64,000 nt of DNA from Escherichia coli (GTDB lineage: Bacteria; Pseudomonadota; Gammaproteobacteria; Enterobacterales; Enterobacteriaceae): the NCBI RefSeq assembly GCF_024700885.2, contig NZ_CP117016.1; one strand, 5' to 3'. A program made the position numbers and the translations under genes. The notes beneath the pieces are model-generated. The model did not search any database, was not told where the DNA came from, and saw only the letters and a list, made by a program, of their open reading frames with translations. Below, piece by piece: positions 5,446 through 50,047 of the stretch. The number at the start of each line of letters is the position of its first letter. Position 1 is the stretch's first letter.

Positions 5446-6713
5446 CTTGCACCTCCTGGCAGTCGTTGACCGATTCGGGCCAGCACCTGCTGTTTAAGAC
5501 CCTCATCACGCAGTGCTTCCGTCAGTTCGGCAGCGAAGGCGTAAATGATCATCTGCTGGGCATCCTGCTGATTGATCCCGCGCGAGCGCAGATAGAACAT
5601 CTGTTCATCATCAATACGCCCCACCGTCGCGCCGTGGCTGCATTTCACATCATCTGCATAGATCTCCAGCTGCGGTTTCGTATCCACCTCCGCCAGTTTG
5701 CCCATCAGCAGATTATTGTTGGTCATCTGACCATCCGTTTTGATGGCGTGCTGCGCGACGTTGATCAGACCGTTAAACACCGCACGGCCTTTGTCGCTGA
5801 CGATAGTTTTGTGCAACTGTCGGCTGTTACAAAAACCTTTATTGTGTTCCAGCCATGTACGGGTATCACACACCTCGTTTTTCACCGGCATCGCCAGGCT
5901 ATTGATCCGCAGCGTGCTGTTTTCGCCATTGAGTTGCGTACTGGTGTTGTGTCGTAACACTGCGCCACCCAGCAGGAAACTGTGGCTAAATGCGGTGGCA
6001 TCGTCAGCCAGCAACAAATCGTTATGGGCAAAGTGGTGACTGAGCGGGTTTTCAAACGCCAGCTTGATATGCTGCAAGTGGGCGTTCGCTGCGATATTGA
6101 TAGTGAACCGTGCCCCGGTAAAATGACGAGCATCATTAAGGCTGACAAAATGTTCGATCACCGTTGCTTCGGCACCTTCCGCCAGATCCAGATGATGTCG
6201 GTAATGGGCAGTGTTGACCTCTTCACCTGCCACGCCCTGGGTAATATGCATTAACAGCAATGGCTTTGCCGGCCGTTGACCGCGCTTCACGGCGATATGC
6301 GTCACGCTTTGCGCCAGGCTTTCCGTCAAATGCAGAAACACTTCCGCCTGAATAGCGTCGGGTAACCCCTGGCGGTCATCGTTAATGCTCACTTCATACC
6401 CGCTGCCTTCAGTCGCATCGCTCAGTGCTGACACGTAACGTCCATCGACAAATACCAGCCGCACAGCGTCTAACGTTAACGCTAAGGCATCTCGCTGCTG
6501 TGGGGATATCTCTCCCGCAATGCAGACAAACTGGCTATTGGTCAGCCCTTCCAGCGGCGTATATTTCCAGTTTTCATGTTTACGTGTCGGCAGTCCGGTA
6601 CGCAGCAATTGTTGTAAATGCTGCTGTGCTTGCGGTGAGCGTTTTGTCCCTTCAGCTTCAAACAAGTGATGCCACTGTTGCAGCGCGTTACTGCTGTTCG
6701 GTAAGCCAGCCAT
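5442..6713 (-). CDS. sufD: Fe-S cluster assembly protein SufD
   Basis: 423-aa ORF overlapping sufS by 4 nt; suf operon synteny. Confidence 0.9.
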
Positions 6714-39078: not shown

Positions 39079-40059
39079 CTAACGTCCTGCTTTTAACAAT
39101 AACCAGATAAACACCGGCGCACCCAACGTTGCGGTGACCACGCCAATAGGCAGCTCTGCGGCAGCTAATGCCAGGCGCGCTACAACATCAGCCAGCAGCA
39201 ATGCGCTCGCCCCTGCCAGCGCGCAGCCGGGAAGTAATACGCGATGATCGGTTAAACCACATAACCGGAGAATATGGGGGATCACCAGACCAATAAAGCC
39301 GATAGCACCCGCCAGCGCCACACTGACGCCAACCATCCAGCCGGTCGCTGCCACCAGCACATTGCGCCAGAACCACAGGGGTAAACCCAGTTGCCGCGCC
39401 GAGATCTCGCCAAGTGCTAACATATTCATCGATCTGGACTGACAACAGATCCACAACAACACGGGGATCAATGCCAGCATCAGCCAGCTTTGCCGCCAGT
39501 CTACGCCGCCAAAACCGCCCATCATCCAGTACATCAGCTGACGTAAATCAACAGAGGTGGAAAAGTAGATAGCCCACGTCATTAGTGCGCTACAGATAAT
39601 CCCTAATGCAACGCCAGCCAGCAATAACCGACTGGTCGAAAGATGACGACGGGCGAAACGTAAGAGTATTAAAGTGATGATAAGCGCGCCAGCAATCGCA
39701 CACAGCCCCAGCGCCCAGTTGGGGAGTTGCCCTTGCCCAAGCAATACCGCGGCGATAAGCCCCACGCCTGCGCCATTAGAGACGCCAAGTAGTCCAGGTT
39801 CTGCCAGAGGATTTTCAAATAACGCCTGCATTACAGCGCCGGATATAGCCAACGCCGCACCAACCAGCAATACAGCCAGCGTACGTGGCAGGCGAATTTG
39901 CCAGACGAACAGTTCGCCACGAGGAGTAAACCAGTCACCTGGCGAGATCCATTGTTCACCGGCGCAAAGGCTTAAGAGAAGCGCCAGCAGCATCAAAACT
40001 GACAGACATAATAACCAGCGAATATTTTGTCGCTGTTGTTGGCGGGCAAGTGTCAGCAT
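39079..40059 (-). CDS. btuC: vitamin B12 ABC transporter permease
   Basis: 326-aa multi-TM ORF, FecCD-family permease. Confidence 0.9.
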
Positions 40060-40116
40060 GGTATCCGTTCTGCTGAAGTGTCATGGCGTTGATTTTACGG
40101 TGACTCTTCGACAGTG

Positions 40117-40142
40117 AAAAGAAAAAAGGCCGCAGAGCGGCC
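40117..40142 (-). terminator. rho-independent terminator on minus strand, upstream of btuC
   Basis: Minus strand reads GGCCGC-TCT-GCGGCC then a T6CT4 run. It would stop leftward transcription from the prophage int operon, or is the relic ihfA terminator. Confidence 0.55.
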
Positions 40143-40267
40143 ATAAACACAAGTAAAAATCAATAAGTTAGATAATTATCAAAGACTTACAGACACACAA
40201 AAACACAGCCAACCACAACAAATAACAGGGATGTGGTCACTTTGTGGATCATATCGCCGCCATAAAT

Positions 40268-40708
40268 TTACTTAATAACAGTAACCACAGCCACAAGCAC
40301 GGCCATCGCAGACAGGACAATACCTGTGAGTAACCAAGTCTGATTTGCAAATGATTTCTGAAGTTCAGTACGATGCTCAGCCATCTCAACTTTCAGAGAC
40401 TGGCGTAAATCAGCCATCTCAGACTTCAGGGATTGGCGAGATTCTGCCATCTCAAGCCTCAACCCTTCGCGAATCTCCAGTACATCAGATTTGGTAGCAA
40501 AGGATTCGCTTCTTGTGGTGAGAGTAATCAGGTTGTTTTTGATTTCAGTCACATCACTTTCCAGGCAACTGACCCGCCGTTCAAGGTCGTCATTCATGCC
40601 ATCACCTCCATCATTACCACTTCCTGTTACTTGGTTGTTGGATACATTATAGGCATTCTCTTTCTTTTTTCTGAACCGCGAAATATGTGCAACATTCTCT
40701 GCCATCAC
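40268..40708 (-). CDS. hypothetical tail-anchored coiled-coil membrane protein (prophage cargo)
   Basis: 146 aa; three 11-residue repeats (EMAESRQSLKS / EMADLRQSLKV / EMAEHRTELQK) and a single C-terminal TM helix (WLLTGIVLSAMAVLVAVVTVIK); start overlaps the stop of the upstream gene (ATGA). No family recognised. Confidence 0.55.
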   Translation of the reverse strand: MMAENVAHISRFRKKKENAYNVSNNQVTGSGNDGGDGMNDDLERRVSCLESDVTEIKNNLITLTTRSESFATKSDVLEIREGLRLEMAESRQSLKSEMADLRQSLKVEMAEHRTELQKSFANQTWLLTGIVLSAMAVLVAVVTVIK

Positions 40709-41067
40709 TTCTCATCACCCTGCTTGCCTACCCAGTTCATAAAGGCCCGGGCCGAGTAACGATGAACAAACCCACATCTGTTACAGGTAAGTCGGAATTC
40801 ATAGTTATGGATATTTTCCCGATCATGTCCCTCATATCCCGGATACCCAGTAAATGGACCGATGTAATCAAGCATAACAAAAGTGCCTAAATCACACTCC
40901 TCAGCAGTTTTCGGCTCAGGCCCCACCTCAACAATATTCGTCAAATACATGTACATATCCGTATCGCCACACGACAAACATTTTTCATTCGTAGACGACT
41001 CATTGAGAAAACGCGCAAAATTATCGAGCGTTGCCATTCTTTTAAGCTCATCTAAATGAAACTTCAC
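40705..41067 (-). CDS. hypothetical Cys-motif protein (possible zinc ribbon), prophage cargo
   Basis: 120 aa with CLSC and CNRC pairs; begins 3 nt after the integrase stop. No family recognised. Confidence 0.55.
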   Translation of the reverse strand: MKFHLDELKRMATLDNFARFLNESSTNEKCLSCGDTDMYMYLTNIVEVGPEPKTAEECDLGTFVMLDYIGPFTGYPGYEGHDRENIHNYEFRLTCNRCGFVHRYSARAFMNWVGKQGDEK

Positions 41068-41069
41068 TC

Positions 41070-42047
41070 TTAAGCACCTCCTAGTGGATTAAACCTCACC
41101 GCATCCTGCAGGTAATCCGGCGCAAGATGGGCATAAATCATCGTTGTCTGAATCTTTGCGTGCCCCAGAATTTTCTGGAGCGTGAGAATATTGCCACCGT
41201 TCATCATGAAATGACTGGCGAAGGTGTGGCGCAGCGCATGAACAGCCTGGCCGTCAGGAACATCAGGTGCGACCGTTTTGATGACATCGCGAACCAATGA
41301 ATAATCCAGCGTCGGAAACACCAGTTTCCCGCCCCGTTTTTTGATCTTTTCAAACAGGCTTTCAGAAATAGGAACGGTACGGTTTTTGCTGTTCTTCGTT
41401 TTTGAAAAAGTGATTCGACAATGAAGAACACGGCGCTGCTCCAGTACCGCTACCTCGCCCCATCGCGCCCCGGTCGACAGAAGGATTTCGACAGCCAGCC
41501 GTTCATCGGGATTTTCAGCCAGTGCATCCAGCAACTGAACACATTCAGACTTACTCAGATATCCCATTTCGCGCTCGTTAACCTTCATTCCTTTAAGGCC
41601 TTGAACGGGGTTATCGTTAAGAAAATGGCCGGATGAGATGAGTGCGGTAAACATCGCGCTTAACGCCCCAATCTCTCGATTTATGGTGCTGGGCTGTATC
41701 CCCTGCTCTATCCTGGACACACGTAGCTCGGTGAGCATCGTTGTATTAAGTCTATGCACGCACGGGTCATCCATTGCCTCACTCAAGCGCAGCAATTTAA
41801 GGCGCGTGTTATGCCCTGACTTCATTAGCTGGCCGTGGTATTTCCACCACAAGTCAATAAGCACTGACAGAGGACGGCGATCAATAGAGTTTCCTTTCCA
41901 CTCATTGTTATGCTGTTGCGCCAGCACCCACCGCTCATATAAAACTGCATCCGATTTCGTTTTAAATTTTTTGCGAATGCGTTTGCCTTTACGCCCCTCA
42001 GGGCGCATGTCAAGAAGATACCCTCCCGGAATTGATTTTATGCTCAT
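41070..42047 (-). CDS. int: P2-type tyrosine integrase
   Basis: From MSIKSIPGGY, about 45-50% identical by eye to recalled P2 Int (RPTGRNGKRIRRKF..., LSTGARWGEA, HALRH.F, LGH...TM.YAH). ORF-track start trimmed by 50 codons. Confidence 0.85.
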   Translation of the reverse strand: MSIKSIPGGYLLDMRPEGRKGKRIRKKFKTKSDAVLYERWVLAQQHNNEWKGNSIDRRPLSVLIDLWWKYHGQLMKSGHNTRLKLLRLSEAMDDPCVHRLNTTMLTELRVSRIEQGIQPSTINREIGALSAMFTALISSGHFLNDNPVQGLKGMKVNEREMGYLSKSECVQLLDALAENPDERLAVEILLSTGARWGEVAVLEQRRVLHCRITFSKTKNSKNRTVPISESLFEKIKKRGGKLVFPTLDYSLVRDVIKTVAPDVPDGQAVHALRHTFASHFMMNGGNILTLQKILGHAKIQTTMIYAHLAPDYLQDAVRFNPLGGA

Positions 42048-42096
42048 TCGTGAAACCCCAGCGTTACAAGACCACCATGCCCCCAGCGTTCCATGA

Positions 42097-42405
42097 TTAG
42101 CCGGGCTGTGTACCAGTCTTGCGGGGCTTTTGAGAAGACGATGTGTTTTCTGGCCCATCAGGGGAGAGAGAGGGACTGATCTGCCCAGCAGCCTCATTCG
42201 TTTTTCCTGTCATAAGCCAATTCATGTACTTAAAAAAGCGAGGGTGATTAACAATCTTGATAAGCACTTCGCCCCCTATGTTTTCAATCCGCCCCGTTTC
42301 ATAACGACGCAAAGTGCCGATAGGCACATCAATCAGGCCGCAAAATTCTTCGCGCGTTAAATCCTCTGATTCACGAATCACTCTAATTTTTTCACCGATA
42401 AGCAT
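42097..42405 (-). CDS. P2 C-type immunity repressor
   Basis: 102 aa from MLIGEKIRVIRESEDLTREEF; resembles recalled P2 C (…SEKIVLMRKSEYLSRQQL…QTPQFTKYTLWFMT…) in sequence and position upstream of int. Confidence 0.75.
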   Translation of the reverse strand: MLIGEKIRVIRESEDLTREEFCGLIDVPIGTLRRYETGRIENIGGEVLIKIVNHPRFFKYMNWLMTGKTNEAAGQISPSLSPDGPENTSSSQKPRKTGTQPG

Positions 42406-42444
42406 TGACAGTGTTCCTATAAGTACACTAAGCTTGCGCACAAG

Positions 42445-44400: not shown

Positions 44401-44790
44401 ATGATTGACGCTCATGACTTCACAAGATGGGTGCGCACACAGGACACCCGTCTGGCTCCCATTCTTCGGGGATTATTTGATCTCTACATTCGTGGTCGTG
44501 ACAACAGAGCACGCACCACAAAACCGGAGAATGTGGATACCCTTTATTTCACAGTAGACGACTGCTACCGCGTGGACTTCACACCACACGGACTGGCGTT
44601 GCACTGCCTGACACCGCACGGCGAATCACTGCTGGCGTATTACGACTCCCCGGCCTCCGTATTTGCGGCAATGCTGGCGCATCGCACTGCTGGCGGGTGT
44701 GCCTCGCTGAGTGAATACACCGCTGAGTTTAACCGCCTTTCCGCCCTCTTCTCGCAGGAGTGGCAGCGCGTGACGGGATACCAGCCATGA
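44401..44790 (+). CDS. hypothetical phage early protein (P2 B-gene position)
   Basis: 129-aa ORF immediately upstream of and overlapping the A gene start. Confidence 0.5.
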   Translation: MIDAHDFTRWVRTQDTRLAPILRGLFDLYIRGRDNRARTTKPENVDTLYFTVDDCYRVDFTPHGLALHCLTPHGESLLAYYDSPASVFAAMLAHRTAGGCASLSEYTAEFNRLSALFSQEWQRVTGYQP

Positions 44791-47627
44791 GTGAGTTTGC
44801 ATGGAGCTGGAATGAACCACGGCCAGCCATTGATCCGGCCAGATTTACGGAGCGCAGGCAGGAAACTGAAACCGACCTGCAACGCGCCATCCGTTACTAC
44901 CTTGAGGCAGACAAAAAGGCCCAAGAAGAACAGGAAGCGAAAGAGGAAGCCTTTTTCGCACAATCCGCCATGGGTAAAAAACTCATGGCATCCCTTGAGG
45001 AAGCCGGACAGCGTGAAAAGCTGGCACAAAGCATCATCAGTAAGCGCCGGGCAACAGAACAAGACCCGGTGGCCCGTGCCTTTGCCACACTGAAGGTGCT
45101 TCCCGTTTATCTGCGAGAACCCCTGAGCCGCCACCTCTCTTTCCTGCGCAAAAAACAGGAAGCCGATCGCCGGAAAGGCAAAAAGAGCTGGCAGGCGGAA
45201 CGCTATGCACGCGGAACCCTGCGCAAAATATTCGAACGTCTGGATCGCACTGACGGACGCTGGCTGACACAGGGTTATCGCTCCATTGCCGGACGCGAAC
45301 GCCTGGACGATTTGCTTTACCTGCCGCAGCTCAACAAACACCAGGTACAGACACTGGCCACCATGACGGCAGCAATGTTCAGTAGCACATTCGAAAAACT
45401 CTGCGATGGCTTTGGCGCGACCGATGGTGAGCTGACCATGGATGTAACGCTGAAGGCGTATCAGATGCTGGCCCGCATGGCGTTACATCTGCACGCCATG
45501 CCTCCACATTATGACGCACTGACAACAGATAGAGATCGGAGGAACGAACCGGACACAGAGCTGCTGCCAGGCGCAATCCTTCGCCTGACCTGTGCTGAAT
45601 GGTGGAAACGCAAACTGTGGCTATTACGTTGCGAGTGGAGAGAAGAACAACTCCGCGCCGCCTGTCTGGTTTCCAGAAAAACATCGCCCTATCTGAGCCA
45701 GGACGCGTTAAGCGAGTTTCGCGCACAGCGCGAGAAAACACGCGATTTCCTGAAAGGTTTCATGCTGGAAAACGAAGACGGGTTCACGATTGATCTCGAG
45801 ACAGTGTATTACGCGGGAGTAAGTAACCCGGTTCACCGTAAGGCAGAAATGATGGCCACCATGAAGGGGCTGGAACTTCTGGCCGAGGCCCGTGGTGACA
45901 AAGCGGTGTTTCTGACTGTCACCTGCCCGTCAAAATACCACGCCACAACAGAGAACGGTCATCCGAATCCCAAATGGAACGGGGCCACCATGCGCGACTC
46001 CAGCGATTACCTGGTTAACACGTTTTTTGCGGCGGTCCGCAAAAAACTGAACCGCGACGGTCTGCGCTGGTATGGCATCCGCACGGTGGAGCCTCACCAT
46101 GACGGCACCGTGCACTGGCATATGATGGTCTTTGCTCATCCGGAAGAAATCGACAGCATCGTGGCCATCACCCGCGATATTGCCATTCAGGAAGACCGCC
46201 ACGAGCTGGGCAATGATATTACTCCGCGCTTTAAGGTGGAGTATGTCGACGGCTCAAAAGGCACACCAACCAGCTATATCGCGACCTACATCGGAAAAAA
46301 CCTGGACAGCCGCGCCGTGGATGGCATCGACCCGAAAACGGGCAAACCACGCGTTGACCACGAAACAGGTAAATCAATGGCCGAGAGCGTGGAGCGCGCC
46401 ATCGGCTGGGCGCGCCTTCACCGGGTCCGCCAGTTCCAGTTCTTTGGCATCCCCTCCCGTCAGGTGTGGCGTGAACTGCGCCGCCTTGCCAGCCAGATGG
46501 CACGCAACCCGGAAGGCCCGCAACGGCTGAAGGATGACGCAATGGATGCGGTACTCGCTGCCGCTGATGCCGGGTGTTTTGCCTCCTACATTGAAAAACA
46601 GGGTGGCGTACTTGTTCCACGCAAGGACTACCTGATTCGCACCGCCTACGACCTCGCAGATGAGCTGAACGATTACGGCGAACAGAGCGTACAGATTTAC
46701 GGGATCTGGTCACCACTCATCGGGGAATCCTCCCGTGTGTGCACGCACCCGGATAACTGGAAGCTGGTAAGACGTAAACCGGAAGCGGAAGACAGCACCC
46801 GCGAAAATGATTTTGACCTTCAGGGCGGCCCTGCCGCCCCTTGGACTCGTGGCAATAACTGTCCCCGTGTACAGGAAACAGACAACAACGGGACAGAACA
46901 GCCGGAAGAACGGCCAGCACCGTGGCCGCAGCTCCCTGACGGCGTTGAAGTGAACGAATGGATGCATTCACTGAAACGGCACGAACGCCGGGCGCTGATG
47001 CGTTCGCTTCGTGACAAACAGGCAAAAAACAGCAGCGATGAAATGCAGAACTGGACACAGAGCCGCAAACAGCCACAGCCTTTACCTGATAACCACGAGT
47101 TACTCGCTAAAGAATGGCGGGAGTCTGCTGAATCTCTCGGCCTGCATATTGGTGAACAGCAGATGCAGCACCTGTTACGGGGCGGCAGTCTGTACGTTGA
47201 CGGCAGCATCATTGCACCGCAGGGATTTGAAATTGTACGCAAACCGGATACCCGCCCGGACAGCCGAATCACGCAGCTCTGGCAACGCCTGAGCCGTAAT
47301 CACGGCGTAAGCAGCACGGAGATCCGCCATAACCCGGTCGCCAGCTATCTGGAACAGCTGGGGGCATCAGACCCTGAAGCCGCCGCACGCCTGGCATCCA
47401 CACTTCAGCAAGACCAGAACACCATGAAAACCCCCGTTACCGTGCTTTCTGACATGCTGCGCGCCATCCGTGACGCAGAGCACGCACAGAGAATCAGTGA
47501 AACCACTGAACGCGCCCACCGCAAAGCAGACCTGCTGCGGGGTAGCCTGACCAGTGGAAACAAAAAACAGACAGAAACGGGACTCACAAATCCCGTAAAT
47601 GAGCAAAAAACGTGCCGCGATATATGA
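44787..47627 (+). CDS. P2 gpA-type rolling-circle replication initiator with long C-terminal extension
   Basis: 946 aa from MSEFAWSWNEP; HUH-type motif VHWHMMVFAH and downstream Tyr-containing region (YIATYIGKN) typical of P2/186 A proteins; last 200 aa or so is low-complexity. Confidence 0.8.
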   Translation: MSEFAWSWNEPRPAIDPARFTERRQETETDLQRAIRYYLEADKKAQEEQEAKEEAFFAQSAMGKKLMASLEEAGQREKLAQSIISKRRATEQDPVARAFATLKVLPVYLREPLSRHLSFLRKKQEADRRKGKKSWQAERYARGTLRKIFERLDRTDGRWLTQGYRSIAGRERLDDLLYLPQLNKHQVQTLATMTAAMFSSTFEKLCDGFGATDGELTMDVTLKAYQMLARMALHLHAMPPHYDALTTDRDRRNEPDTELLPGAILRLTCAEWWKRKLWLLRCEWREEQLRAACLVSRKTSPYLSQDALSEFRAQREKTRDFLKGFMLENEDGFTIDLETVYYAGVSNPVHRKAEMMATMKGLELLAEARGDKAVFLTVTCPSKYHATTENGHPNPKWNGATMRDSSDYLVNTFFAAVRKKLNRDGLRWYGIRTVEPHHDGTVHWHMMVFAHPEEIDSIVAITRDIAIQEDRHELGNDITPRFKVEYVDGSKGTPTSYIATYIGKNLDSRAVDGIDPKTGKPRVDHETGKSMAESVERAIGWARLHRVRQFQFFGIPSRQVWRELRRLASQMARNPEGPQRLKDDAMDAVLAAADAGCFASYIEKQGGVLVPRKDYLIRTAYDLADELNDYGEQSVQIYGIWSPLIGESSRVCTHPDNWKLVRRKPEAEDSTRENDFDLQGGPAAPWTRGNNCPRVQETDNNGTEQPEERPAPWPQLPDGVEVNEWMHSLKRHERRALMRSLRDKQAKNSSDEMQNWTQSRKQPQPLPDNHELLAKEWRESAESLGLHIGEQQMQHLLRGGSLYVDGSIIAPQGFEIVRKPDTRPDSRITQLWQRLSRNHGVSSTEIRHNPVASYLEQLGASDPEAAARLASTLQQDQNTMKTPVTVLSDMLRAIRDAEHAQRISETTERAHRKADLLRGSLTSGNKKQTETGLTNPVNEQKTCRDI

Positions 47628-47703
47628 AGCACGCACAAAACAGGCAAAAGAGGGATTTCAGAATCCCGTAAACGGTTAATTAATCAACATAAGGAAAATC
47701 GAC

Positions 47704-48663
47704 ATGAAAATTTGTATCGACGACGGCTCCACCAACATCAAGCTGGCATGGACTGAGAACGGCGAACGCCGCAACGCCATCAGCCCGAACAGCTTCAAGT
47801 CGGAATGGTCTGCGCCGTTCGGTGGCACGCAGCCCGCGAACTACATGCTTGATGGCGTGCGCTATGGTTTTGATCCGGTCAGCGATCGCTTTATCCAGAC
47901 GACCGACACACAATACCAGTACAGCGATGTGAATGTCATTGCCATTCATCACGCGCTGGTCAAATCAGGCATCACGCCACAGGAGGTGGATGTGGTTGTC
48001 ACCCTGCCACTGAGCGAGTATTTCGACACAAACGCACAGCCGGACATGGCCAACATCAACCGCAAAAAAGCAAACGTTATGCGCCCGGTGGAATACCAGA
48101 ACGGCGAAGCATTCACTATCCGTAATGTACGGGTTATGCCTGAATCCATTCCGGCTGGCTTTAAAGCACTGGCTGACATGAGTCCGTTTGAATCCCTGCT
48201 GATTGTGGATTTAGGTGGAACCACGCTGGATGTGGCAAAGGTTCAGGGACAACTGGCAGGTATCAGCCAGGTGTTTTGCGATCCACACGTAGGCGTTTCC
48301 CTGATGGCCGATGCAGTACTGTCGGTGATGGCCACTAACGGTATGCGTACCAGTCACCACATCGCCAATACCATTATCGAACATCGCCATGATGAAGCCT
48401 GGCTGCGCCAGCACATCCACAATGACGCGCATTACGCCAGCCTGATGGCGGTTATTCGTGAAAAGGAAGAAACACTGAAACAACGCGTGATCCGCGCGCT
48501 GGCGGGTTTTTCGGGTTACGGGCGGGTGATGGTTGTCGGTGGCGGGGCGGAGATTGTGGCACCCGCTATCCGCGAAGCCTGCGGAGTTAATGCGACTTTC
48601 ATCGCGGACGGGGTGCCACAGTTTGCTCTGGTTAATGGGCTGTACGCAATGGACAAGGAGTAA
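47704..48663 (+). CDS. ParM/StbA-like actin-type ATPase
   Basis: 319 aa; actin-fold motifs IDDGSTNIKL (phosphate 1), DLGGTTLDV (phosphate 2), VVGGGAE (adenosine); collinear over full length with recalled plasmid R1 ParM (MLVFIDDGSTNIKLQW…YSDVNVVAVHHALL…VMPESIPAGY…DLGGTTLD…GGGAEL). Confidence 0.8.
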   Translation: MKICIDDGSTNIKLAWTENGERRNAISPNSFKSEWSAPFGGTQPANYMLDGVRYGFDPVSDRFIQTTDTQYQYSDVNVIAIHHALVKSGITPQEVDVVVTLPLSEYFDTNAQPDMANINRKKANVMRPVEYQNGEAFTIRNVRVMPESIPAGFKALADMSPFESLLIVDLGGTTLDVAKVQGQLAGISQVFCDPHVGVSLMADAVLSVMATNGMRTSHHIANTIIEHRHDEAWLRQHIHNDAHYASLMAVIREKEETLKQRVIRALAGFSGYGRVMVVGGGAEIVAPAIREACGVNATFIADGVPQFALVNGLYAMDKE

Positions 48664-48667
48664 ACCA

Positions 48668-48979
48668 ATGACGACACCAACCAGGCGGATAAGTTTCTAT
48701 CTGAAGCCTGCGGCCGTCAAGAACGAAAGCGAAGCATGCGCCTGGCTGGACAGCCTTACACCGGAAGCCCGCAAAAGCGGCCAACGCGTGGCTTTTCTGG
48801 CCGGGCTGGCACTTCTGAAAATGAATCCGGCAGAGGCTTACCGACTGGCTGCATGGGCTGACGATGAGGCGTTATCAGTGACACAAACCAGGACAGAACG
48901 CCCCCTGTCACAGCCAGTACCAACCGCACAGATAACCAGTCAGATGGCCGGAAATATCAGGGCGTTATTTCCTGAATAA
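48668..48979 (+). CDS. ParR-like DNA-binding adaptor
   Basis: 103 aa from MTTPTRRISFYLKPAA...; N-terminus resembles recalled R1 ParR (RRTIAFKLNPDV…LDSIP.GERS…AALTAGLALY); starts 5 nt after the parM-like stop. Confidence 0.65.
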   Translation: MTTPTRRISFYLKPAAVKNESEACAWLDSLTPEARKSGQRVAFLAGLALLKMNPAEAYRLAAWADDEALSVTQTRTERPLSQPVPTAQITSQMAGNIRALFPE

Positions 48980-49042: not shown

Positions 49043-49426
49043 ATGAGCAAAATCAACTATCAGGCATTACGTGAACGTTATTCACCTGCACCAGTACCAA
49101 AATGCCCTATTTGCTGCGAAGAAATGTCAATTCAGCGAATATCTGGAGCACAGGTTGTTTATGGCTGCTCCGGTTATGGTGATGATGGAGATTTCAAAAT
49201 TGGTCGAACTCTTGCCGACGAACATTATGAAAAATCACGCGTAACAGTGTTGGATGTCGGGGATCCTGAAGTATTGGCGCTACTTGATTGGCTGGAAACC
49301 AAAGACAACCGAATCGCTGAACTGGAAAAAATCGCCACTGACTATGCACTTAAATTCCAGAAAGCACAGGACGCATTAAAGTACGCCGCTTTGCTGCATA
49401 GCAGGTCAGCGCAGCTACAAGACTAA
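49043..49426 (+). CDS. hypothetical protein with N-terminal Cys motif (CPICC...GCSGYG) and C-terminal coiled coil
   Basis: 127-aa ORF; lower GC than the phage backbone by eye; no family recognised. Confidence 0.5.
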   Translation: MSKINYQALRERYSPAPVPKCPICCEEMSIQRISGAQVVYGCSGYGDDGDFKIGRTLADEHYEKSRVTVLDVGDPEVLALLDWLETKDNRIAELEKIATDYALKFQKAQDALKYAALLHSRSAQLQD

Positions 49427-49454
49427 CTTAAAGCGGAAGATTAATACATGGTGA

Positions 49455-49481
49455 GTCGGGGTAATTTGTTTTTATCCCGAC
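49455..49481. terminator. bidirectional terminator hairpin between convergent island genes
   Basis: GTCGGG...CCCGAC stem with a T-rich loop and flank, between the plus-strand 127-aa gene and the minus-strand membrane gene. Confidence 0.45.
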
Positions 49482-49516
49482 AAATAAACAAAAAAGTGGA
49501 CTATCTCTGTAGTATC

Positions 49517-50047
49517 TTATTCAGCATCGTCTCGTGCAGTCTGTGCATACGTCACAACAACGCCCAATGCATTAGTTTTCTTTTCAACATAGATAATATT
49601 GTCATATTCATAGTTACCATACGGATAGCAAATAAGAATATTTTTATGCAGATCGGGATCATCAACAAACGCTCCGGAACAGCTTCTTGAACTACCGGAT
49701 GTATACTCATACGGTGCAACATATGATGATGTTACTCCTGGTAAAAAATAAGTCACCATCATAAGAGGGATAATCAGGAATATCCCTGTAAGAATGCAAG
49801 AGCCAGCATAAACCTTCAGGTATTCCGACAGTCCTTTCCAGCCACTTTGCTTCACTACCCCCCTCTTCACCAGAAACAAGGAGAAGAAAAAGGACATACC
49901 CATACTACATAAGATGTAATAATTGGATATACGCGAATTAAGATATGTAATCCTGTAGATATCTGCCCTCCACCAGTAAAAGAGGAAAATAATCCCTAGC
50001 ACTGAAACAGTCATGCAAATCAAATAAGGATATGAATCTTTCTTCAT
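49517..50047 (-). CDS. hypothetical low-GC integral membrane protein (moron-like)
   Basis: 176 aa; three predicted TM segments (YLICMTVSVLGIIFLFYWW, YYILCSMGMSFFFSLFLV, CILTGIFLIIPLMMVTYFL) then a roughly 70-aa soluble C-terminal domain; markedly AT-rich compared with flanking phage DNA (by eye). Confidence 0.6.
   Translation of the reverse strand: MKKDSYPYLICMTVSVLGIIFLFYWWRADIYRITYLNSRISNYYILCSMGMSFFFSLFLVKRGVVKQSGWKGLSEYLKVYAGSCILTGIFLIIPLMMVTYFLPGVTSSYVAPYEYTSGSSRSCSGAFVDDPDLHKNILICYPYGNYEYDNIIYVEKKTNALGVVVTYAQTARDDAE

Follow-up and report, generated by a model that had tools for sequence, protein, structure and literature searches.

Gene A of the prophage in the window (the whole 64-kb stretch of DNA that was analysed) is very probably a standard, intact initiator gene of a P88-like prophage (Xuanwuvirus, Peduoviridae), and its 946-aa product is an ordinary, correctly annotated protein. 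The enclosing open reading frame (ORF) lies at 44760..47627 (+ strand), translation from its ATG at 44787 yields a product of 946 aa, and the PGAP/RefSeq annotation of E. coli E-1246 contains exactly this CDS as a 'replication endonuclease' (WP_113828064.1, 100% match). The protein is truly longer than its counterparts in phages P2 and 186, whose annotated lengths of 761 and 694 aa agree with those given in a preliminary description of this DNA. The extra length has two sources: an N-terminal helical hairpin, which exceeds that of P2 and 186 by about 50 aa and exists as two deeply diverged alleles, and a long tail encoded by the part of the gene after the replication origin. The features up to and including the origin are:

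44401..44790, + strand: 129-aa ORF, the stop of which overlaps the start of gene A (ATGA)
44787..47627, + strand: gene A, P2-family rolling-circle replication initiator (HUH nickase), 946 aa
44787..45107, + strand: N-terminal allelic segment, aa 1–107
45339..46313, + strand: catalytic core, aa 185–509, match to the Pfam profile Phage_GPA
46113–46121, + strand: HUH motif H443-W444-H445, inside EPHHDGTVHWHMM
46275–46277 and 46287–46289, + strand: tyrosines Y497 and Y501 (YxxxY), inside SYIATYIGKN
46785..46922, + strand: disordered linker predicted by the models, aa 667–712, holding the origin DNA
46812..46871, + strand: replication origin within gene A, aligned to the annotated P2 nick site and the 186 ori

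Although the preliminary description treated the length as unusual, it is shared by close relatives. The A genes of the Xuanwuvirus phages P88 (YP_009113059.1, 940 aa) and PhiR44_2 (XSB42701.1, 946 aa) are the same gene in the same order and of the same length, and lengths across the family form a continuum (694, 761–765, 802, 812–841, 870–879, and 910–946 aa). The A proteins of P88, P884B11, and PhiR44_2 are 92–97% identical to that of the window (97% for PhiR44_2 and 92–94% for the P88 type, over the aligned part). The P88 group also has the same origin block, the same tail, and the same parM and parR genes downstream, and its neighbouring genes match those of the window (DUF4761, DUF4754, A, parM, parR, Ead/Ea22, portal, and terminase). 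At the level of sequence, this near-identity, together with the genes of the early region and their order, places the prophage in Xuanwuvirus (P88-like). It is extremely unlikely that the long ORF arose artificially or by a recent accident, in which a frameshift, a sequencing error, or a fusion joined a P2-sized A to a downstream gene: although gene A of phage 503458 is split into pieces, the 946-aa form belongs to a cluster of 16,881 sequences, and the gene is present in 1,319 of 5,426 complete E. coli genomes (about a quarter).

The excess over P2 consists of 52 aa before the Pfam core, 14 aa within it, and 119 aa after the origin-encoded NNC motif; the corresponding values for the excess over 186 are 46, 29, and 177 aa (186 has 77 residues after this motif, compared to 254 here). 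The earlier assignment of the extra part to the C-terminus thus holds for the segment after the NNC motif but overlooks the N-terminal and core contributions.

The protein is a P2/186-type HUH replication initiator, as the preliminary description had recognized. Specifically, the Pfam family Phage_GPA (PF05840) matches aa 185–509 over its full profile (positions 1–321; E-value 4.5e-130; score of 433.8 bits, cut-off 31.4), and phrog_91 ('nicking at origin of replication') matches the protein with an E-value of 9.8e-276. The HUH motif residues H443-W444-H445 and the tyrosines Y497 and Y501 are invariant columns in an alignment of 28 sequences, P2 and 186 among them, and SYIATYIGKN aligns to GYIAKYISKN of P2. 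We take the catalytic role of Y497 and Y501 to be that of the P2 tyrosines. The core has a dN/dS of 0.06–0.14 and a pLDDT of mostly 85–95 in the full-length AF2 model (the alignments behind our structure models were shallow, with 17 and 28 sequences). Foldseek searches with this model returned weak matches of HUH type (AAV Rep OBD, IS608 TnpA, and Helitron; E-values 0.1–0.3). By homology, a core of residues from about 100 to 665 carries the HUH metal site and the Y497/Y501 pair, and the origin is located within the gene itself. The P2 A protein (NP_046795.1, 761 aa) has the Phage_GPA core, the HUH motif, and the two-tyrosine motif in common with the window protein at 33% identity; the 186 A protein (NP_052289.1, 694 aa) is a member of the same family, likewise with the origin in its gene, at 35% identity; and the 802-aa A proteins of Klebsiella (Dagavirus) and Yersinia (Elveevirus) phages are 42–44% identical.

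The N-terminal segment is predicted by the AF2 model to contain a helical hairpin (helices 30–59 and 61–92, pLDDT of about 70), most of which is missing from P2 and 186 in the alignment. Compared to P88, only these first 107 aa differ: the segment and the P88-type allele share 23% identity, whereas the remainder of the protein is 95% identical. The window carries the rarer allele (window/PhiR44_2 type) and not that of P88, and most E. coli matches to gene A start at nt 322. The 129-aa ORF upstream also exists as two alleles of about 23% identity, which co-vary with the A N-terminus. This ORF occupies the position of P2 orf83 and 186 CP83 (DUF5405), and its Hafnia counterpart has a weak match to DUF5405. 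According to the 186 record, A is translated only when translation of the preceding ORF runs to completion; here, stop and start overlap in ATGA, and the two ORFs are probably translationally coupled.

The predicted nick lies at about 46843/46844 in GGACTCGTGGCAATAACTGT, which encodes AAPWTRGNNC (aa 683–692), a position transferred by alignment from the P2 annotation. The P2 origin is located at the homologous codons of its A gene (AAPRSPVNNC), with the origin core CCTCGGAGTCCTGTCAATAACTGT in P2 compared to CCTTGGACTCGTGGCAATAACTGT here. The nick-site sequence matches only once in the window, and a 32-nt origin block is conserved without change in P88 and in relatives from Klebsiella, Yersinia, Hafnia, and Salmonella. 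In comparisons of gene A with Hafnia, Klebsiella, and Yersinia, the origin is the highest peak of nucleotide identity (and the sole peak with Hafnia; the other identity windows flagged with Klebsiella and Yersinia all fall within the core), and one diverged E. coli A gene matches the window gene only at nt 2035–2083. Over aa 677–695, six of the seven comparisons give a dS of 0, and that with Hafnia gives 0.07. The linker encoded by this DNA (aa 667–712) has a pLDDT of 31–33 in the full-length model and a low one in the C-terminal model too. Because the origin DNA is read as a predicted disordered linker, the constraint on the DNA would cost the protein little. By analogy with P2 A, gpA would nick its own origin, remain tyrosine-linked to the DNA, and prime rolling-circle synthesis, so that the initiator would act in cis on the DNA encoding itself. 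For P2 A, site-specific nicking and action in cis are established, as is its covalent attachment to its own template (PMC11719329).

In related A proteins, 76–254 residues follow the origin, with nested motifs in common. Up to the par cassette, the tail of the window protein comprises:

46932..47021, + strand: tail module 1, aa 716–745, helices with 'EW..SL.R.ERRAL.RSLR'
47082..47261, + strand: tail module 2, aa 766–825, a small alpha/beta unit with '..SLG....E...HLLRGGS'
47262..47384, + strand: tail module 3, aa 826–866, 'R.T..W.RLSRNHG...EIR.NP'
47385..47561, + strand: tail module 4, aa 867–925, helical, with a long helix at about 883–922

Module 1 is common to the 186, Klebsiella, and Yersinia A proteins and is followed by a predicted disordered spacer (about aa 743–765). 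The motif of module 2 is found in P2, Klebsiella, and protein P0025. The Klebsiella and Yersinia A proteins have modules 1 and 2, end about 25 residues past 'LLRGGS', and lack modules 3–5, whereas P2 has the tail motifs up to the 'L.RG...DG' module and lacks most of the N-terminal hairpin as well as modules 3–5 (the 52 and 119 aa given above). Module 3 is common to the 870–879-aa variants and a distant 841-aa A protein, and module 4 is limited to P88-type A proteins and one Hafnia relative. These motifs are nested extensions of those in P2, 186, and Klebsiella, and dN/dS is below 1 over aa 696–925, which both argue against an accidental fusion.

Selection is unevenly distributed along the tail. 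From about aa 770 to 866, there are many synonymous and almost no non-synonymous changes. The dN/dS of module 2 is 0–0.11 in five of seven comparisons, 0.61 with P0041 (three changes), and 0.33 with Hafnia; that of module 3 is 0.06–0.15. Judging from these substitutions, aa 766–866, which are partly shared with P2, Klebsiella, and Yersinia phages, are under strong purifying selection as protein. In module 4, the dN/dS of 0.28–0.54 indicates relaxed constraint. The pLDDT of module 2 is 82–88 in the C-terminal model and 65–87 in the full-length model, and that of the module 4 helix reaches 91 in the C-terminal model. The composition agrees with the earlier description of the tail as hydrophilic, but not as low-complexity: its 40-residue entropy (3.5–4.0 bits) is the same as in the rest of the protein, and the lowest values (3.1–3.3 bits) are found at the N-terminus, in aa 21–80. 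Disorder is predicted for only three stretches of the hydrophilic tail (aa 667–712, 743–763, and 920–946), and the rest is predicted to form helices and the small alpha/beta unit. A Pfam search of the tail found no domain, and Pfam coverage of the whole protein is limited to aa 185–509. Of the two findings that the preliminary description would have taken together as a refutation, relatives with A proteins of the same length exist, whereas an annotated C-terminal domain does not.

With its low dN/dS, predicted fold, and partial sharing among phages, the part of the tail at aa 770–866 behaves like a real protein module, and a regulatory or host-interaction role, as suggested in the preliminary description, is therefore possible. 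The inner modules (aa 766–866) would most likely have an adaptor function, with either DNA or another protein as the partner, and the outer helix (aa 867–925) is lineage-specific and weakly constrained. A profile search of PDB sequences with the tail yielded nothing, the best Foldseek match of the C-terminal model had an E-value of 0.7, and a word-based search with aa 760–946 retrieved only fragments of the same protein. An exhaustive phmmer search of 1.84 billion representatives with aa 810–946 gave 13 matches, all but two of which are A proteins or their fragments. Two giant proteins (P0020 and P0028) were dismissed as spurious tail homologs, as they match through many weak repeats and are adhesins of cadherin, Ig, and RTX type according to Pfam. 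A separate C-terminal product from an internal in-frame start, comparable to A* of phiX174, was also rejected, since the starts in aa 600–946 have no Shine–Dalgarno sequence. In the literature consulted, nothing relevant to a C-terminal domain of the P2 or P88 A protein was found.

The tail would consist of nested modules exchanged by recombination, with a break at or just after the origin in two clear cases. In the relative L008, homology to the window ends at nt 2079 and the A protein is a different, 830-aa form; L009 is near-identical up to aa 695 (dS of about 0.02) and diverged beyond it (dS of 0.11–0.42). The tail might instead be kept mainly for embedded DNA elements, such as origin accessory or lagging-strand initiation sites, with the protein largely a by-product. 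The zero dS over the origin, the predicted disorder of the peptide encoded there, and the par repeats that cover the last 21 codons (see below) are in line with this explanation. We nonetheless regard it as very unlikely, given that the Hafnia, Klebsiella, and Yersinia comparisons have no nucleotide-identity peak in the tail, that aa 770–866 show selection at the protein level, and that alternative tails of unrelated sequence are viable.

The 3' end of gene A runs into a partition cassette, in which the following features were located:

47562..47627, + strand: last 21 codons and stop of gene A, KKQTETGLTNPVNEQKTCRDI, a read-through into the left edge of the parM/parR cassette
47561–47599 and 47634–47672 (span 47561..47672), no strand assigned: two copies of a 39-nt direct repeat
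47579–47594 and 47652–47667: palindrome GGGAYT-N4-AATCCC, one in each 39-nt repeat
47704–48663, + strand: parM (StbA_N, E-value 2.4e-82; ParM_N, E-value 1.1e-68; RefSeq agrees)
48668–48979, + strand: parR/StbB-like gene (Plasmid_stab_B, E-value 1.7e-24; RefSeq agrees)

The actin-like ATPase ParM and the adaptor ParR of a type II ParMRC system are thus both present. As in the ParM/ParR/parC system of plasmid R1, homologs of ParM (StbA) and ParR (StbB) are accompanied by repeated sites immediately upstream of parM. The parC site of R1 consists of ten 11-bp iterons, whereas the candidate sites here are the two 39-nt repeats with 16-bp palindromes, the first of which sits within the end of gene A. 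The palindrome arms are invariant and the centres variable among the window, P88, Salmonella, and Hafnia, and the repeats are a candidate ParR operator or centromere-like site. When classical plasmids were searched for these upstream repeats, the six records that matched were all P88-like elements.

Sequence comparison indicates that the last 21 residues are supplied by this neighbouring cassette and not by A itself. An unrelated 155-aa ORF located before parM in the relative L016 has the same 21-aa tail at its end, with DNA homology beginning at 47563; in Hafnia, the same conserved DNA is read in a different frame; and A genes without parM directly downstream have other ends. The last 21 codons have a dN/dS of 0.8–1.6 (based on very few substitutions and sites), and the residues they encode are predicted to be disordered (pLDDT below 50 in both models). 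They would represent an incidental read-through into operator- or centromere-like repeats of the parMR cassette.

The shared 21-residue end, which belongs to the par cassette, agrees with an origin of the long ORF by fusion, as do the separate small ORFs located between A and parM in some relatives (with A proteins of 876 and 830 aa). Yet the extra ORFs of L016 (155 aa) and L008 (143 and 100 aa) have no similarity to aa 696–925, and they were rejected as the source of the tail, since only the last 21 residues are shared. A frameshift and a whole-gene fusion, which the preliminary description had proposed to check against relatives, are excluded; the comparative data argue against an artefact or fusion for aa 1–925, and for the last 21 aa a contribution from the neighbouring cassette is essentially the explanation that we accept.

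The adjacency of parMR raises a further interpretation, in which the tail is a dedicated functional domain of P88-like phages that either recruits a host helicase in place of P2 gpB or couples replication to ParMR in a plasmid-like state. P2 has gene B, whereas the window has no detectable homolog: tblastn searches of the window with P2 gpB and other P2/186 early proteins returned nothing convincing (best E-values 0.01–0.05 over 22–26 residues). The position of parMR directly downstream, the strong purifying selection on aa 770–866, and a database entry in which a complete P88-like genome, encoding the same 946-aa A, is classed as a circular plasmid of 34,461 bp also fit this interpretation, as does the possible episomal state suggested for P88 (Pfeifer et al. 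2021; PMC7969092). We consider it unlikely, however. Long-tailed A genes occur without parMR downstream (L009, L013, and L015) and short-tailed ones occur with it (L016, and a remnant in L008), the lineage-specific aa 867–925 are relaxed (dN/dS of 0.3–0.5), and no structural or sequence similarity to a helicase loader or a ParR partner was found. Speculatively, and with a probability that we put quite low, the post-origin tail may be a swappable adaptor that is made recombinogenic by the initiator's own nick site, in which aa 826–925 would supply a function that P2 obtains from separate proteins (helicase recruitment or segregation coupling) and thereby enable episomal persistence.

As the gene of an ordinary P88-like initiator, the long A gene needs no special explanation. 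For the annotation of P2-like prophages, carried by about a quarter of E. coli genomes, the origin can be located with a precision of a few bases, in a stretch that encodes a predicted disordered linker. The post-origin part of gene A is a mosaic zone, and length differences there should not be mistaken for frameshifts. A neighbouring cassette can contribute the end of an ORF, as illustrated by the 21-residue tail common to two unrelated proteins encoded upstream of parM. If it were true that the tail couples replication to partition, this would bear on the plasmid state of these prophages.

Gene A occupies a plus-strand open frame (44760..47627 in a six-frame ORF list) that encodes 946 aa from its ATG. 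The following features of the window are referred to below:

44401..44790, plus strand: upstream ORF, 129 aa, overlapping the start of gene A (ATGA)
44787..47627, plus strand: gene A, P2-family HUH replication initiator
46843-46862: GGACTCGTGGCAATAACTGT, the putative origin, encoding AAPWTRGNNC (aa 683-692)
47561-47599 and 47634-47672: two copies of a 39-nt direct repeat, either side of the A stop codon, the first inside the end of A
47704: start of parM, followed by a ParR/StbB-like gene

The protein is already known and already annotated: E. coli E-1246 (NZ_CP025573.1) matches the window at 100 per cent, and PGAP calls its identical CDS a 'replication endonuclease' (WP_113828064.1). Pfam Phage_GPA (PF05840) matches aa 185-509 (E = 4.5e-130), and the alignment to PHROG 91 ('nicking at origin of replication') and PHROG 6857 reaches the C-terminal end. 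A shows every testable feature that defines the P2 gpA family, and likewise those that define the P88 group (Xuanwuvirus, Peduoviridae); placement in this group comes from tblastn against phage genomes, in which PhiR44_2 matched A over its full length (97 per cent identity) and P88, P884B11 and others matched aa 62-946 (92-94 per cent).

The preliminary description had put the A proteins of P2 and 186 at roughly 700-760 aa, which is correct (761 and 694 aa in the annotated reference records); the idea that 946 aa is anomalous is not borne out. The annotated A proteins of P88 and PhiR44_2 have 940 and 946 aa, respectively, with neighbours as in the window. A 946-aa cluster in a large protein collection holds 16,881 member sequences, and the 940-945-aa clusters are large too. 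At least 80 per cent of the gene's length is found at high identity in 1,319 of 5,426 complete E. coli genomes, O157:H7 and ST131 strains among them; a core segment is found in 1,363 genomes, and the post-origin tail by itself (aa 695-925) in 1,356. Judged from these sequence counts, the long form is therefore the normal form of A in E. coli. A frameshift or assembly error as the source of the length is ruled out by the same-length relatives and the high prevalence. The length is typical of the P88 group, and lengths across the family form a continuum. In the record of phage 503458 (NC_049341.1, deposited as Xuanwuvirus), gene A is annotated in three or four pieces; decay, or errors that introduced frameshifts into the record, are the probable cause.

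To locate the extra residues, A was aligned with its counterparts from P2, 186, P88, and 24 further relatives. Of the 185 residues that A has in addition to P2, 52 precede the Pfam core, 14 fall within it, and 119 follow the conserved NNC motif encoded by the origin; relative to 186, the corresponding numbers are 46, 29, and 177. The proposal that the extra length is C-terminal thus holds for the 119 residues after NNC, but not for those before and within the core. At the N-terminus, the additional residues are predicted to form a helical hairpin (helices 30-59 and 61-92; pLDDT of about 70). Likewise, the tail is hydrophilic as described, but its low complexity was overstated, the entropy being 3.5-4.0 bits per 40 residues as elsewhere in the protein; complexity is lowest near the N-terminus (aa 21-80).

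In the P2 record the nick site is annotated within gene A, and in the 186 record ori is at the homologous position. By alignment, their counterpart is the motif at 46843-46862, which occurs once in the window. A 32-nt block, GCGCCCCTTGGACTCGTGGCAATAACTGTCCC, is identical in the window, P88, Klebsiella, Yersinia, Hafnia, Salmonella, and RMDEC332, in genes whose A proteins are down to 42-59 per cent identical to that of the window. In sliding windows, 46812-46871 is the gene's strongest peak of nucleotide identity to Klebsiella and Yersinia and the sole peak to Hafnia, and in one diverged E. coli A gene the match is confined to nt 2035-2083. Codons 677-695 carry no synonymous change in six of seven pairwise comparisons and one in Hafnia (dS 0.07), with flanking dS of up to 0.4-1.7. 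Since pLDDT is 31-33 at aa 667-712 in the AlphaFold model, the origin DNA is predicted to coincide with a flexible linker of the protein.

Beyond NNC, 76 residues follow in Salmonella 761-765-aa forms, 77 in 186, 121 in Klebsiella, 135 in P2, 138-146 and 181-200 in others, and 229-254 in the P88 type. The motifs of the tail are nested across these relatives.

Motifs, predicted structure (both structure models unless stated), and dN/dS (Nei-Gojobori estimates) along the A protein
Motif, aa 716-745: 'EW..SL.R.ERRAL.RSLR', common even to 186 and Klebsiella
Motif, aa 766-825: '..SLG....E...HLLRGGS...DG', common to P2, Klebsiella, and P0025, a distant protein of 841 aa
Motif, aa 826-866: 'R.T..W.RLSRNHG...EIR.NP', common to 870-879-aa variants and P0025
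Outer segment, aa 867-925: P88 type and one Hafnia relative only
Structure, aa 722-758: helices
Structure, aa 743-765: disordered
Structure, aa 766-825: compact unit of two helices and three strands (pLDDT 82-88, C-terminal model)
Structure, aa 826-880: helices
Structure, aa 883-922: single long helix
Structure, aa 920-946: disordered
dN/dS, core: 0.05-0.14
dN/dS, aa 696-769: 0.06-0.58
dN/dS, aa 770-825: five comparisons out of seven within 0-0.11; the other two 0.61 (protein P0041, three changes) and 0.33 (Hafnia)
dN/dS, aa 826-866: 0.06-0.15
dN/dS, aa 867-925: 0.28-0.54
dN/dS, aa 926-946: 0.8-1.6, from a small number of sites at which dS is very low

By these regional ratios, the inner tail is under selection as protein, constraint on the outer helix is weak, and the final 21 codons behave like constrained DNA. 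An exhaustive phmmer search with aa 810-946 against 1.84 billion representatives gave no match outside A proteins except two giant adhesins, dismissed as spurious, and fold searches with the structure models gave no significant match.

Each 39-nt repeat copy contains a 16-bp palindrome, GGGAYT-N4-AATCCC. The DNA from the repeats to parM is conserved in P88, Salmonella, and even Hafnia, with invariant palindrome arms and variable centres, and 47561-47672 is a candidate ParR operator or centromere-like site. A 1-nt difference shifts the Hafnia A gene into another reading frame across the element, so that it terminates within the first palindrome. At locus L016 (E. coli GCA_024713385.1), A has 876 aa, and A is separated from parM by an unrelated 155-aa ORF (6128-6595) whose N-terminus has a CxxC...CxxC pattern. 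The last residues of this ORF, KQTKTGFTNPVNEQKTRRDI, are identical to the tail of the window's A, and DNA homology to the window begins at 47563. Whichever ORF abuts the par cassette gains the 21-residue tail. The A genes of loci L009, L013, and L015, with other cargo downstream instead of parM, have different ends. Together with the shared tail at L016, this indicates that A proper comprises 925 residues and that the remaining 21 are read-through. A cargo hot spot lies directly downstream of A (L009 4995-6720, L013 6779-9306, L015 6932-10302), and its content varies with the strain: parMR in some, a set of three unnamed genes on the minus strand in others, or an AAA ATPase plus S8 peptidase pair.

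The gene is also mosaic. The A gene of RMDEC332 (L008) is homologous to that of the window as far as nt 2079, just beyond the origin core, and a different tail completes an 830-aa protein; that of FDAARGOS_1252 (L009) is near-identical up to aa 695 (dS 0.01-0.02) and divergent thereafter (dS 0.11-0.42). The two breakpoints (4579 in L008) are independent and fall immediately after the origin core, at about window 46865; from them, the nick site of the initiator may be a recombination hot spot. The first 107 aa form a second block that can be exchanged: in most E. coli copies the match begins only at nt 322, and the two alleles are 23 per cent identical. The upstream ORF has two equally diverged alleles (about 23 per cent identical; 129 aa in the window, 118-121 aa elsewhere), which co-vary with those of A in every locus examined (window 44401-45107; L001, L011, L012, L013). 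This co-variation suggests either one exchange block or physical interaction of the two products.

Homology shows that the protein carries the HUH and YxxxY motifs and that the gene itself contains an origin. By analogy with P2 A, the protein would nick the origin, bond covalently to DNA via a tyrosine, and initiate rolling-circle synthesis, thereby acting on its own coding DNA, a property of P2 A used in covalent antibody display (PMC11719329). The ATGA overlap suggests that A would be translationally coupled to the upstream ORF; the 186 record notes such dependence. A regulatory or host-interaction domain, as previously proposed for the tail, is possible at aa 766-866, which may act as an adaptor; aa 926-946 would have no function. 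In P2, gene B is required for lagging-strand synthesis. Using tblastn, we found no homologue of gene B, or of P2 orf80, orf81, orf82, and orf91, in the 64,000-nt window; the tail is only one candidate among many for recruiting the lagging-strand helicase in this lineage. In their place, the early region has DUF4761, DUF4754, and a number of small ORFs with no name.

A complete P88-like genome has been deposited as a 34,461-bp circular E. coli 'plasmid' (NZ_CP148288.1, pZ1323PEC0009-2); it encodes an integrase, an A protein of 946 aa, ParM and ParR, and the head and tail proteins. This record fits the possible episomal state suggested for P88-like elements (PMC7969092), and it could also represent excised or replicating phage DNA.

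Elsewhere in the prophage, RefSeq annotation of the same sequence has the Ead/Ea22-like gene after parR as truncated and the next minus-strand ORF as frameshifted; this part (49043-50047) is therefore decaying. The prophage adjoins btuC, which two unnamed minus-strand genes separate from the integrase (about 39270-42441, annotation of locus L007). The integrase ORF has 375 aa from the first ATG in the window versus 325 aa in the PGAP annotation.

The anatomical details of A, namely an origin in a predicted linker, a nested and recombining tail, and a terminus donated by the adjoining cassette, are an aid to annotation and are unsurprising.
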